From Escherichia coli (GTDB lineage Bacteria > Pseudomonadota > Gammaproteobacteria > Enterobacterales > Enterobacteriaceae), in assembly GCF_003018255.1 (NCBI RefSeq), contig NZ_CP027440.1: DNA of 64,000 nucleotides, one strand, 5' to 3'. The position numbers were made by a program. Below, in pieces: positions 3,001 to 9,000 of this stretch; positions within the stretch are counted from its first letter, which is position 1, and the number at the start of each line of letters is the position of its first letter.

Positions 3001-6000
3001 TTTCATTGATGATGCGGGACCAGCCATCAACGCCCACCACCGGAACGATGCCGTTCTGCTTATCAGGGAAGGCGTAAATTTCTTTCGTCCACGGATTAAG
3101 GCCGTACTGGTTGGCGACGATCAACAATGCGATGAACTGCGCATCGCTGGCATCACCTTTAAATGCCGTCTGGCGAAGAGTGGTGATCAGTTCCTGTGGG
3201 TCGACAGAATCCATGCCGACACGTTCAGCCAGCTTCCCTGCCAGCGTTGCGAGTGCTGTACTCATCCGTTTTATACCTCTGAATCAATATCAACCTGATG
3301 GTGAGCAATGGTTTCAACCATGTACCGGATGTGTTCTGCCATGCGCTCCTGAAACTCAACATCGTCATCAAACGCACGGGTAATGGCTTTTTTGCTGGCC
3401 CCGTGGCGTTGCAAATGATCGATACATAGCGATTCAAACAGGTGCTGGGGCAGGCCTTTTTCCATGTTGTCTGCCAGTTCTGCCTCTTTCTCTTCACAGG
3501 CGATCTGCTGGTAGTGACGCGCCCAGCTCTGAGCCTCAAGACGATCCTGAATGTAATAAGCGTTCATGGCTGAACTCCTGAAAATGGCTGTGAAAATATC
3601 GCCCGCGAAATGCCAGGCTGATTAGGAAAACAGGAAAGGGGATTAGTGATTCAGGCCGTTACCGCGTCCGTCGAGAAAAACTTCCACGAGCAAATCACGG
3701 GTATAAGTGCGCTCGATGCCGCGATGCAGATATAGCCGTCCGCGTAAATTAGCTGATGCAGTCCAGGTACCATCTTTGTGTTTGACCAGCATTCCTGGCA
3801 TGACCGCACCTCGATTAACGGTCTGCGTTCCATAATGTTGATGAACCATAAAAACTCCTGCCCGTAAGCTGGGCTGCTGAACATATAGAGACTTCTGCGC
3901 GTATTCAGGCGGTGGATGGCCGCCGGTTGTCATAACTAAGCCGCCTCGTTGAAGCGACTGAGGTATGAGGTGTTGAGTTGATTTCAGCTGGTCACACCGA
4001 CGTTCACGCGTCCGTTTCACCCCTCGCACTCCCCGGAGCCTGCCGAAATTCAAGCTGCGGATCTAAGCGGTCATCGCAACGGTGAATCAGGCGGTTGCCG
4101 TATCGTTGTGTTGTTGCGACATGGTAATAATAGCTATTGCTATTGGTGGTATCAATACTTATTGCTATTGATTGATGTGTTTTGATATTAACTGTTTGAT
4201 AGCAAAAAGAATTAATTTTGTGACTTGCATCGCATAGCGATAACTGAAGGGAGGTTGTGGTGGTTTTTCGAACGGTTTGTGTGATGAGGGGAGGGGACAA
4301 AAGAAAACCCGGCACGGTGGCCGGGCTAGATCTTAAAGTATTTATCTTTTAGAGATGTAGATGCAAAATTTTTTGCCTTTGAAAATTTTTTGTCATCAGA
4401 AGAGCTTATGAACTCATCTTTTTTGTAGGGAACCGCTAATGCTGCATCACGTCTGCGAGGCAGCTTACTTACTTCCTCGCACTTTTTCATGATCAGTTAT
4501 CCTTTAATAACCTATACAGTTTTGTAGGGGTACATCCTGAGGATATTGTTAAGTTCGTAGCACGCCTTTTCCGCCCACCATCGTATAAACGAAAACCAGT
4601 AGTAGACGAATTTTCTGCGTCAAAAACTATAGACAGTATAACGTCCCCAGACTTTTTTTGCCATTCATATGTGCCGTTAGTTGGTTTTGTCATCTGTAGA
4701 CGCCAGTCAAGAACGCCATCACTTATAGCTGAGAGATCGTTTAGTACGTCTAGTACGGATTGATATCTTTCATTTGGATCTACATGAATGCATTTGTTTA
4801 CTATTGTTATCAATTTTTTATGTATGTGGGAAGGATACTCTTTTAATGGATAGGAGCCATTAATTATCGACTCTCTGAGTTGTTCAATCGTTCTAAATGC
4901 AGATCTTTCTCTTTCAAAATTATCATATCCAACACACATTCTATATATGGTTAATCCTGCCTGATATATGTCATATGTGAAATTATAATCATTTGTTGAT
5001 AAAGAAAAATATTCCGGTGGCACATGAAAATGATATCCAAACTCAGGCGCAGCTCTCGATTCCTCATTGACTAACTGAGACAATCCAAAGTCAGATAGCA
5101 TGGCCTCATTTCTGTTTGATATCATGATGTTATTAGGTTTTATATCAAAATGCATAAGACCTTTTGAGTGTATATGATAAAGCCCACTTAAAAATTGAAT
5201 AGAATACCGTATTATCTCCCTGCTCGTAAGATTAATCTTTTTTATTAATTGGTTTAGCGAACCATTATGATAAAATGGCATGGCTATATAGATATTGCTC
5301 TCACATTGAGCAGCATACTGAACTTGCACAATATTTGGATGTGCATGTTTATAGAGAAGCCTTGCTTCATTAAAGTAGTCGTCGTGGTTAGTGTTTTCTT
5401 TTTTTTCTATTTCTTTAATCACCAAGTCATGAGCTAGGTGTCTGTCATGAGCCAGATATACTTTTGAAAAACAACCCTGTTCTTCTAGATCACGAATCCA
5501 TTCGAATGCTACATCAGCTCTTTTGTATGGAGTCAGCATCCCCTTACCTCCGCAGATAGTGCAGCCAAAACAGCTTCATTTGTTTCAGTTGTAAAACCAG
5601 AATTATCGATTCCATTTATATTACGGTGTGACTTCAATATTTCTTTATACTCGATCTCTGTTAGGTTCAATGATGACTTCATACCAGATTTTCTAATGGT
5701 GTAATATCTTCTTACATCACTGCTTGAAAATGCTTCTTGAATAACAGCTTCTATATAAAGGCGGTCAATGCTAAGATTATCAGAGTTTGATTCAGTAACG
5801 CGTATAGCAGCTAATTCAACATTATATAAATTAAGAATGTCGAGGATGTTATTTCGCACATACTTTAATTTTTCTGGTGTGTCTAAGGTCGAAGGTATTT
5901 TAATAACATCAACACATTTGAGTGCAGACTCATCAGTGCAATATACAACAAAAGATGTAACTTTGGGCGCCGCCCTAACACCTAGTATTCTCATTTTTTA

Positions 6001-9000
6001 TATCCCATTTTAGAATCAGGCTGCGTTTCTGCAGCCTCTCTCATCACCCAAATGTCTAATCAGGCTATTATTGATTATCCATGTTTCCTGTATGTTTGCG
6101 GCATGCTCCCAATAACTTTCCCGAAGATAAACACCCGGTTCATCTCGTCTTTCTCGATTGGGTCCCACGGTGAGTAGCTCTTGTTATCAGAGATAACCAG
6201 CAGTTTATCCTTCATCATTTGCAGGCGCTTAACATGGGCTGTGTCGTCATACAGAAACGCATAGATACCATCACCGTCGAAAGATTTAACAGTGATATCA
6301 ACGAACAGAAGATCACCTGGTTCGATCGTTCCTGACATGCTGTCACCGCGTACGTTAATGATGCGGATATTTTCTGCCTTCCTGCCATCGAACATGTGAC
6401 GAGCATCGTCAAACGAGTACTCAACCGAGCGTAGAACTTCTACAAACTCACGGTTGATGACTCCCGGCCCGGCACTCACTTCTATATCAAGAACGTCAAT
6501 CTTGAAGTATTTGGGATGGTTGGCAGCAGGCTTCCCTGATTGTTGACCGTCATTTCTCATCGGGCCTATGCCTGATGAGAGCCACTCTGTTCGAACACCC
6601 AATGCATTAGCTATTTCAACAATTTTTGTTGAGCCGCGTGCGTTGCCGCTTGTCAGTCTCCAGATTGTGGGTTGAGCTACGCCAGACGCCTTTGCAAGAG
6701 CGCCTTGAGACATTCCAGATTGTTCCATCGCTAGGTTTAAGCGATCAGCAAGAGTTTCTTTTTTCATAAGTTTTAATTTATACGCTTGCGTATTGATGGT
6801 CAAAACACGTTTTGCTATTGATTGGGTTAATACGCATTGCTATTATCCATTCATTGTAATACCAATAGGAATTGATAATGACAAATCAAACCATTCAACT
6901 CGCAATCAGTATTACAGGTAGCCAAAAACGACTGGCAGATCTATGCGGTGTAGCCCAGCCCACTGTTTGGCGTTGGCTACACGGTGGGGGAATTGATGCC
7001 CGCTATGTAATGAAAATTGTCTCAGCCACTGGTGGAAAGATTAAACCAGCAGATATTCGTCCCGACCTTGCACCATTGTTTAACGCGAGTAATTCTGCCG
7101 CCTAAACTGCGGCGTTAACTGATAAGGCAATGATTATGCAACCACTTACATACCAACAGACTAGCGGATTTAGCCCGACTGCGGTGATAAATCGTTCTCA
7201 AATAAAACAGGTGCCAGGCCACGAAAAAATCCGTGATGCCGTTCGCGCCTGGTCGGCTGCAGATAATCAGGATGTTGTTGCCGCACTCATTGTGAATGAG
7301 TATCGGGAGCAGGGCGGCGGCACCATCGATTTCCCTGATGATGTCAGCCGTGCACGCCAGAAGCTGTTCCGCTTCCTCGATAACAAATTCGATTCTGAAA
7401 AATACCGAAATAACGTGCGTGAACTGACCCCGGCAATTCTGGCGGTACTACCGCTGGAATATCGCGGCCACCTGGTTGAGCAGGATAGCTTCATGGCTCG
7501 GCTGGCTGAAATGGAAAAGGAACTCTGTGAGGCAAAGCAGGCGGTCATTCTCAACGCACCACGCCACCAGAAACTGAAGGAGATGAGTGAAGGCATTGTG
7601 TCGATGTTTCGAGTGGACCCGGATCTGGCTGGTCCATTGATGGCGATGGTCACCACCATGCTGGGGGCAATATGACAGGTTCAAAAATGGCGAAAGTCGG
7701 TCTGCGGGAACAGAACCGACTTTCAGGTGCAAATCGTAACACACTCATTGCGGGAGGAATTATGGCAAACACTGCTGAGATATTCAATTTTCCAGTGCCG
7801 GATGCGGCACAAAAGGAGCCGCGCGTGGCAGATCTCGATGATGGTTATACGCGCATTGCAAATGAGTTGCTGGAAGCTGTGATGCTGGCCGGATTAACAC
7901 AGCACCAGCTTCTGGTCTTCCTGGCTGTCATGCGCAAAACATATGGCTTTAATAAAAAACTGGATTGGGTGAGCAACGAGCAACTGTCCGGATTGACCGG
8001 GATATTACCGCACAAGTGTTCTGCTGCAAAAAGTGTTCTGGTAAAGCGTGGGATTTTGATTCAGAGCGGGCGGAATATCGGTATTAATAATGTGGTCAGT
8101 GAATGGTCAACATTACCCGAATCAGGTAAGAAAAATAAAGTTTACCTGAAAGAGGTAAATTTACCTGAATCAGGTAAGAAAAGTTTACCCAAATCAGGTA
8201 AAGGCGTTTACCCGAATCAGGTAAACACAAAAGACAAACTAACAAAAGACAATATAAAACCTTTTTCGTCCGAGAATTCTGGCGAATCCTCTGACCAACC
8301 AGAAAACGATCTTCCTGTGGTGAAACCAGATGCTGCAATTCAGAGCGGCAGCAAGTGGGGGACAGCAGAAGACCTGACCGCCGCAGAGTGGATGTTTGAC
8401 ATGGTGAAGACCATCGCACCATCAGCCAGAAAACCGAATTTTGCAGGGTGGGCTAACGATATCCGCCTGATGCGTGAACGTGACGGACGTAACCACCGCG
8501 ACATGTGCGTGCTTTTCCGCTGGGCATGCCAGGACAACTTCTGGTCCGGTAACGTGCTAAGTCCGGCCAAACTCCGCGACAAGTGGACCCAACTCGAAAT
8601 CAACCGTAACAAGCAACAGGCAGGCATGATAGCCAGCAAACCAAAACTCGACCTGACAAACACTGACTGGATTTACGGGGTGGATTTATGAAAAACATCG
8701 CCGCACAGATGGTTAACTTTGACCGTGAGCAGATGCGCCGGATCGCCAACAACATGCCGGAACAGTACGACGAAAAGCCGCAGGTACAACAGGTAGCGCA
8801 GATCATCAATGGTGTGTTCAGCCAGTTACTGGCAACTTTCCCGGCGAGCCTGGCTAACCGTGACCAGAATGAACTGAACGAAATCCGCCGCCAGTGGGTG
8901 CTGGCTTTCCGGGAAAACGGGATCACCACAATGGAACAGGTTAACGCTGGAATGCGCGTAGCCCGTCGGCAGAATCGACCATTCCTGCCATCACCCGGGC

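Follow-up and report, generated by a model that had tools for sequence, protein, structure and literature searches.

Two exact copies of the 13-mer TTGCTATTGATTG, at 4162-4174 and 6812-6824, flank the cI repressor gene of a lambdoid prophage in Escherichia coli (contig NZ_CP027440.1, assembly GCF_003018255.1), in a stretch of 64,000 nucleotides that is referred to here as the window. Our analysis suggests that these 13-mers are probably fragments of the left (OL) and right (OR) operator arrays of the prophage, the unit of which would be ATAC-N6-GTAT, a 14-bp inverted repeat set at a 25-bp phase.

The original prediction had taken the 13-mer itself for the operator. Much of what it described is confirmed: both copies are exact, lie on the + strand and have no third counterpart without mismatches in the window, and of the related half-sites nearby TTGCTATTG (4137-4145) is an exact 9-mer and TTGCTATTA (6837-6845) matches it at eight of nine positions. 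One copy sits on the side of cI that carries OL and the leftward promoter PL, the other on the side of OR, the rightward promoter PR and the repressor promoter PRM, and both overlap predicted repressor half-sites. The interval of about 2.7 kb between them holds only cI and the kinase cassette with its terminator, according to gene calls and a promoter and terminator scan. The 13-mer does not stand as the operator, however; it consists of half of a predicted 14-bp site plus flank, and its last four bases fall in the most polymorphic stretch. The operator interpretation therefore holds for location and half-site overlap and fails for the unit, and the left halves of the sites, OR3 (6780-6793) and a candidate site at 6859-6872 were missed. 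OR3, the sole site in which both arms are fully complementary, lacks the 9-mer word.

Predicted operator sites around the repeated 13-mer

The repetition of a 13-mer is by itself unremarkable, because 57 maximal exact direct repeats of this length or longer are present in the window; it is the location that counts. Matches to the 13-mer with up to two mismatches are not enriched in the window (5 found, 2.75 expected), and a word of at least 13 bases common to both promoter regions (4121-4305 and 6768-6877) arose in 2 of 3000 shuffles (P ~0.0007). The signal is confined to the first nine bases, the four-base tail ATTG varying freely at both ends among loci with the same repressor.

Matches to ATAC-N6-GTAT with zero to two mismatches begin at 4130, 4155, 6780, 6805, 6830 and 6859, with spacings of 25, 25, 25 and 29 bp (Table 1). 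The pattern is not enriched across the window (34 loose matches found, 29.9 expected), and six of these 34 fall within about 200 bp. OR3 has no mismatch in the window. OL1, OR2 and the weak candidate OL3 (4199-4212) have two mismatches each, so that they rest on phasing and conservation and not on their own scores; at the position where a 25-bp phase would place OL3 (4178-4195) there is no match. OL1 and OR1 stand in identical mirror register to PL and PR, overlapping the -10 hexamers by 3 nt, and the same is true of OL2 and OR2, which overlap the -35 hexamers by 1 nt. The centres of the three OR sites lie at about -16.5, -41.5 and -66.5 from the predicted PR start, and those of OR2 and OR3 at -43.5 and -18.5 from that of PRM. 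The OR sites of phage lambda are arranged relative to PR and PRM much as seen here.

The 13-mers and the shorter words can be accounted for within this array. The half-sites noted at 4137-4145 and 6837-6845 correspond to the right halves of OL1 and OR1; the recurrence of the 9-mer arises from the sequence TTGCTAT, which forms the right half in four of the five operators and continues with T and then G or A. At OR, the bases 6818-6823 form the predicted -35 hexamer of PR, TTGATT, whose last three bases are supplied by spacer bases of the 13-mer. Superposition of the two arrays at a register of 2650, that of the original prediction, pairs OL2 with OR2, while a register of 2675 pairs OL1 with OR2 and OL2 with OR1; the two score equally since the array repeats every 25 bp.

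Conservation and polymorphism of the sites

Six relatives were compared, namely the phages 4A7, ST104 and BTP1, two Klebsiella phages and one Yersinia phage, which make seven phages with the window. The same sites recur at the same spacing in all six, apart from departures in the Yersinia phage described below, and all six keep the recognition helix (A/S)QPTIWRL together with the ATAC/GTAT sites. Mean column identity is 87% over OR and about 74% over the whole cI-cro region. OR3 is free of mismatches in five of the six relatives and has one in the Yersinia phage, OR2 is identical in six of the seven phages, and the weak candidate OL3 is kept in 4A7, ST104, BTP1 and one Klebsiella phage.

Polymorphism was examined in 80 IMG/VR loci (L007-L086) with cI 99-100% identical, which yielded 34 OR and 45 OL variants. 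Diversity is 0.017 inside the 18-bp intervals of the sites and 0.081 outside them (P = 0.003), and OR3 shows almost no polymorphism among the OR variants. The polymorphic hot spots (6821-6826, 6847-6848, 6857, 4146-4150 and 4170-4174) lie in spacers between sites or just outside the arrays, and as the tails of the 13-mers fall in them, these are the least constrained bases at both ends. Positions 10-13 of the 13-mer vary in 20 of the 45 OL variants and in 23 of the 34 OR variants. In the OR alignment of five phages TTGCTATTG is invariant and the next four bases are not, being ATTG in the window, TTAT in 4A7, CTTT in ST104 and CTAA in Klebsiella. Among the 56 loci that have the same repressor (at least 99% amino acid identity) and in which both regulatory regions can be anchored, the tail is equal at OL and OR in only six, and five of these represent one stk-carrying genotype (the window and L007-L010); independent assortment of tails predicts equality in about 18%, so there is no co-variation of the OL and OR tails. 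The polymorphism of the tail and the lack of co-variation led us to reject the 13-mer as a functional unit, and its extension from 9 to 13 bases would be a lineage-specific coincidence in unconstrained spacer.

Variation in spacing gives further insight into which parts of the array are fixed. In the Yersinia phage OR3 and OR2 are 24 bp apart and OL1 and OL2 are 19 bp apart, and locus L073 has a 1-bp insertion in the spacer between OR2 and OR1. The 6-bp centre of the sites is constant in all seven phages, whereas the spacers vary among 1, 6, 7 and 8 bp when L073 is included. These variants imply that the flexible part is the spacer and not the 6-bp centre.

In locus L012, with the same cI, OL can no longer be aligned; it nevertheless contains a pair of 14-mers at the 25-bp distance, and here the 9-mer is found on the opposite strand. 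We observed the same in about ten similar loci, where two ATAG-N6-(C/G)TAT sites 25 bp apart, with TTGCTATTG on the opposite strand, lie some 1.7-2.2 kb downstream of the cI stop. As judged from these sequences, the OL of the L012-type loci, which share cI and OR with the window, would be an independent OL version for one repressor. The strand of the word bears on a reading in which same-strand TTGCTATTG words 25 bp apart are direct repeats for a repressor like P2 C or an activator like YdaT or CII. All four copies of this type in the window are on the + strand at a fixed 25-bp spacing, as such a reading would have it, and binding to direct repeats is a known property of P2-type repressors (PMC2995052). 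The word is on the opposite strand at OL in L012 and in the Klebsiella and Yersinia phages, however, as for a site with two-fold symmetry; OR3 is a perfect palindrome, and the cI domain resembles that of 434 and not P2 C. We therefore regard direct repeats as the least credible of the explanations considered.

Phage Turner offers a natural exchange of specificity. Its cI is 81% identical and has a different recognition helix, and at the equivalents of OR3, OR2, OR1, the cro ribosome-binding site, OL1 and OL2 it carries ACAA-N6-TTGT, with sites of the ATAC type absent from these positions. In both Turner and ST15-VIM1phi2.1 the operator word changes with the recognition helix while the promoter layout does not. 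This observation tells against the notion that the TTGCTATT words represent chiefly promoter elements, namely a -35 resembling TTGCTA and a -10 of TATTAT, or that their repetition in AT-rich DNA is due to chance, rather than being protein-binding sites. It is true that TTG in the OR copy opens the -35 of PR, that the -10 hexamers are included in CTATTAT (6840-6846) and in its mirror image (4127-4133), and that TTGCTA serves as the -35 of both PL and PR in the Klebsiella phages, while the number of long repeats in the window would favour chance. On the other hand, the copy at 4162-4170 is placed upstream of the -35 of PL and is on the wrong strand to serve that promoter, none of the promoters at the scan threshold uses the copies at 4137 or 4162, and the shuffle test speaks against chance. 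Taking these points together, we consider an origin of the words in promoter elements or chance very improbable.

The sixth match, a candidate fourth right-hand operator (O4) over the cro ribosome-binding site, recurs in each of the seven phages, +29 or +30 from OR1. Since Turner has a site with its own type of arms at the same spot, it is possible, though we hold it only tentatively, that O4 is functional and has co-evolved with the specificity of the repressor. Were this so, the action of the repressor or Cro would extend beyond the promoter to a position downstream of it, where either protein would form a roadblock or control the translation of cro, and the same would hold for an entire group of enterobacterial lambdoid and P22-like phages, BTP1 among them.

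Alternative pairing of the operator arms

Conserved arms of two types, (C/T)AATAC and G/CTATT(G/A), follow one another in alternation along the two regions, which allows them to be paired in two ways. Pairing across 6 bp gives the 14-mers described above, with arm centres about 10-11 bp apart; pairing across 7 bp gives 19-mers at 4140, 6790 and 6815, with arm centres 14 bp apart. In the second case the operator would be GTATTG-N7-CAATAC, with a variable centre that is not contacted and one site per promoter: 4140-4158 at about -29 of PL, 6815-6833 at about -29 of PR and 6790-6808 at about -31 of PRM. The 13-mer at OR would then represent a left arm with part of the centre, and that at OL an orphan half-site.

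Several observations weigh against the 14-bp reading, and some of them favour the 19-mers directly. The longer pairing has the best arm matches and scores better at the arms of PL, with 11 of 12 positions in every relative; the centres of the 19-mers coincide with the hypervariable stretches (arm diversity 0.011, centre 0.187), and each 19-mer would directly block its promoter. OR2 is a poor palindrome with two arm mismatches, only 6 of 18 positions being self-complementary in an 18-bp frame, and a single site with two mismatches does not exceed what chance would give. Symmetry is lacking in the conserved 6-bp centres, which is unusual for mere spacers, and the conservation of O4 could instead reflect the cro ribosome-binding site. 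PL, PR and PRM, against which the sites are registered, are predictions of a consensus scan. Open-access text yielded no binding, footprint or transcription-start data for this phage or operator family; neither did it yield a publication with these operator strings or the operators of this immunity group, and the literature on HK022 or BTP1 operators held nothing relevant to this set.

Against this, the spacing of the 19-mer arms is not constant, being 6 rather than 7 bp in the PRM site of the Yersinia phage and 8 bp in the PR site of L073, and arm centres 14 bp apart are off one helix face for a 434-like domain. The 19-mers leave the conserved arms at 4128-4133, 4165-4170, 6778-6783 and 6840-6845 unexplained, and taken whole they show no reduction in polymorphism relative to the surrounding sequence (0.076 against 0.044). 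The 14-bp sites of Turner are unambiguous, and a 19-mer over the PRM -35 would leave no positive autoregulation. We have therefore demoted the 19-bp operator as a first choice on the basis of its geometry, the Yersinia and L073 spacings, the 434 homology and the Turner comparison; it is unlikely, but is the alternative that we take most seriously. A variant with abutting 19-mers, such as 6834-6852 as OR1, was also rejected, as it is inconsistent across the relatives.

Table 1. Features of the cI region, with positions in the window. Promoters, transcription starts and operator sites are predictions.
Feature	Coordinates	Strand	Description
13-mer, OL side	4162-4174	+	OL2 positions 8-14 (TTGCTAT) and 6 bases beyond the array, upstream of the PL -35
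13-mer, OR side	6812-6824	+	OR2 positions 8-14 and 6 bases of the OR2-OR1 spacer
OL1, ATAGCTATTGCTAT	4130-4143		3-nt overlap with PL -10; centre about -16.5 from PL start; 2 mismatches; from pattern scan with 25-bp phasing and equivalent sites in six relatives
OL2, ATACTTATTGCTAT	4155-4168		1-nt overlap with PL -35; centre about -41.5; low polymorphism within
Weak candidate OL3, ATAGCAAAAAGAAT	4199-4212		44 bp from OL2; 2 mismatches; individually within chance expectation
OR3, ATACGCTTGCGTAT	6780-6793		Both 6-bp arms perfectly complementary; between PRM -10 and -35; centre about -18.5 from PRM start
OR2, ACACGTTTTGCTAT	6805-6818		1 bp outside PRM -35, touches PR -35; centre about -43.5 from PRM start and -41.5 from PR start
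OR1, ATACGCATTGCTAT	6830-6843		3-nt overlap with PR -10; centre about -16.5
Candidate O4, ATACCAATAGGAAT	6859-6872		About +7 to +20 of PR transcript, over cro Shine-Dalgarno; 1 mismatch
PL	4127-4155	-	-35 TTGATA (4155-4150), 17-nt spacer, -10 TATTAT (4132-4127); 10 of 12 consensus positions
PRM	6775-6803	-	-35 TTGACC (6803-6798), 17-nt spacer, -10 TAAATT (6780-6775)
PR	6818-6846	+	-35 TTGATT, 17-nt spacer, -10 TATTAT with preceding TG
Intrinsic terminator	4306-4327	-	End of cI-stk operon; counterpart of annotated tM in 933W
Three-gene cassette downstream of cI	4326-5994	-	153-amino-acid open reading frame (ORF) 5533-5994, stk 4493-5539, 54-amino-acid ORF 4326-4490
cI repressor	6075-6767	-	230 amino acids; Pfam HTH_3 and Peptidase_S24 autopeptidase
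cro	6878-7105	+	75 amino acids; Pfam YdaS family, helix-turn-helix
YdaT-family protein	7130-7675	+	cII position; Pfam

The repressor, Cro and a proposed switch

The organization of the locus follows the pattern of lambdoid phages, with a divergent cro, predicted back-to-back promoters in the gap between cI and cro, a predicted leftward promoter beyond the cI operon, and related inverted repeats, five or six phased 14-mers, over the promoters at both ends. The repressor combines a helix-turn-helix domain with a LexA-like S24 self-cleaving domain, in which the Ala-Gly (VSAGPG), Ser (GDSM) and Lys (VKRL) motifs are all present. Among solved structures, the 434 repressor comes closest to its DNA-binding domain (E = 4e-6 to 2e-5) and aligns with it without gaps over 60 residues, and the Gln aligned with Gln28 of 434 is kept. 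The recognition helices of Cro (GVAQPTVWRW) and cI (GVAQPTIWRL) are nearly alike, and with a helix so close to that of cI, Cro should read the same sites. The Pfam names of the Cro and CII counterparts are 'toxin YdaS' and 'toxin YdaT'; judged by gene position and helix-turn-helix content, these proteins are more likely regulators than toxins.

We propose that the ATAC-N6-GTAT 14-mers are most likely the binding sites of cI dimers and also of dimers of Cro, whose helix is almost the same. In the lysogen, cI on OL1/OL2 and OR1/OR2, perhaps bound cooperatively, would shut PL and PR, and at OR2 it would probably stimulate PRM. Lambda cI activates PRM from a position like that of OR2, at about -43. 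Transcription from PRM would run to the terminator at 4306-4327 and yield a leaderless cI-orf153-stk-orf54 mRNA, and occupation of OR3 by excess cI or by Cro would shut PRM. RecA-stimulated self-cleavage of cI at the Ala-Gly bond during the SOS response would lead to prophage induction, and the sixth site over the cro ribosome-binding site probably adds repression.

Comparison with phages 434, lambda, 933W and the 4A7 group

The operators of phage 434 are 14 bp long, with 4-bp arms and a 6-bp centre. The predicted sites resemble these (ACAA-N6-TTGT; PDB 2OR1, 1RPE, 1PER) in their 14-bp length, 4-bp inverted arms, 6-bp centre and A at position 1, and the two systems are also alike in the repressor domain and in that, within each, repressor and Cro have near-identical recognition helices. 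They differ in the arms, which are ATAC/GTAT here, in the remainder of the helix (QPTIWR here, QQSIEQ in 434), by which the phage is predicted to be heteroimmune to 434, and in the 25-bp spacing of the sites. ACAA-N6-TTGT with up to one mismatch is not found at OL or OR of the window.

With lambda (OL-rexBA-cI-OR-cro) the prophage shares the gene order, divergent PR and PRM, a predicted leaderless cI mRNA, three OR sites at about -17, -42 and -67 from PR, OR2 at about -43 from PRM, cargo downstream of cI that is co-transcribed with it and has a terminator after it, and a distance of about 2.65 kb between OL and OR. In contrast to lambda, the sites are 14 rather than 17 bp long, only two OL sites are clear, an extra candidate site lies over the cro ribosome-binding site, no N gene follows PL, and proteins of the YdaS and YdaT families occupy the positions of Cro and CII.

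Phage 933W (cI-DUF3024-orf-stk-orf-tM) has the 153-amino-acid ORF, stk, the 54-amino-acid ORF and the terminator, 96.9% identical, in the same place relative to cI. The homology ends at 4300 and 6057, however, and cI, cro and the operators are unrelated, so that the specificity is not that of 933W; the 933W locus has its own annotated 15-bp oR1-3 and no TTGCTATTG-like word, and it contains a DUF3024 gene and an N gene, both absent here. The immunity backbone is instead shared with 4A7 (Bievrevirus), ST104, SE1 and BTP1, the operators and their phasing with 4A7, ST104 and BTP1, and the PL leader with 4A7. The cargo between cI and OL differs, being ASCH plus a hypothetical gene in 4A7, BstA in BTP1 and orf23 in ST104. 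4A7 also differs in its spacer bases and its OR tail, TTAT, and accordingly lacks the 13-mer identity.

These comparisons indicate that the locus is a predicted standard lambdoid switch with 434-type operator geometry and a specificity of its own, with the immunity of neither 434 nor 933W. While this is conceptually unsurprising, it provides a consensus and predicted coordinates for the operators of an immunity group frequent among prophages of E. coli, Salmonella (ST104, SE1, BTP1), Klebsiella and Yersinia, and these may be of use in predicting superinfection immunity groups and in engineering.

Origin of the kinase cassette and the cargo slot

The kinase gene stk encodes a predicted Ser/Thr kinase (Pfam Pkinase, E = 1e-46). 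Positions 4300-6057, which are 96.9% identical to 933W and its relatives, correspond exactly to the terminator tM, L0081, stk and the next ORF, while the flanks at 3600-4326 (OL, PL) and 6076-7110 (cI, OR, cro) match Escherichia phage 4A7 and phages like it at about 97% identity; in those phages a cassette with an ASCH domain fills the same slot. The cI protein is 99% identical to that of 4A7, 85% to those of ST104 and SE1, and about 40% to HK75-type repressors; over the operator region, DNA identity to BTP1 is about 76%. The locus thus consists of a 933W-type stk cassette inside an immunity backbone of the 4A7/ST104/BTP1 type, and the 933W Stk kinase cassette has moved as a unit into a non-933W immunity frame. 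The exact 4.1-kb arrangement is present in 29 complete E. coli genomes.

Between cI and OL (4326-6057) lies a hot spot for cargo genes. Across the 80 loci, at least nine cassettes, from 0.6 to more than 1.7 kb in length, are found under the same cI (at least 99% amino acid identity). Besides stk, which only four loci carry, they encode a SIR2_2-domain protein of 535 amino acids, a HipA-like kinase pair, DUF7946/DUF7947, an M78 peptidase-like protein, a BamE-like lipoprotein and ASCH with a partner; several have no Pfam match. One repressor and operator frame can therefore carry at least nine alternative cargo cassettes, several of which resemble defence genes. A single start site serves cI and its downstream cargo gene bstA in BTP1, where the two make up an operon (PMC7067206).

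Promoters, leader and additional observations

Both hexamers of PRM are invariant in five phages, and its predicted start lies 1-2 nt from the ATG of cI, so the cI mRNA would be leaderless. We also considered TTGCTA as the -35 of additional promoters and rejected it, as no partner -10 scored above the scan threshold.

No gene for an N-type antiterminator was found between PL and kil. The PL leader of about 270 nt (3850-4120, - strand) is 96-98% conserved even in the heteroimmune phages Turner and PhiR34_1, and a block of about 60 nt within it (3908-3968) is common to HK225 and phi80. An Rfam scan of 3000-8000 gave no match, and the fold of the 271-nt leader is no more stable than that of shuffled sequences (z = 0.44), which leaves a put-like antiterminator RNA without evidence. 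Within the same region, an ATG at about 3933 would lengthen the Kil reading frame to about 96 amino acids.

The palindrome ATCGC-ATA-GCGAT at 4229-4241, between OL and the operon terminator, is kept in 4A7 and in heteroimmune Turner, and its presence in the latter indicates that it is not a cI operator. Among the stk carriers, L010 (IMG/VR 3300028995_000007) has a 6-bp insertion, GCTATT, at the equivalent of 4132/4133, which creates a third tandem CTATTG. With it the predicted PL spacer would grow from 17 to 23 bp, an effect expected to inactivate PL or displace OL1; L010 may be a decaying prophage or an assembly slip.

Further downstream, the O-like replication gene (7672-8691) contains direct repeats at 8113-8224, with TTACCCGAATCAGGTAA at 8113 and 8208 and GAATCAGGTAAGAAAA at 8119 and 8167, and these repeats look like origin iterons.

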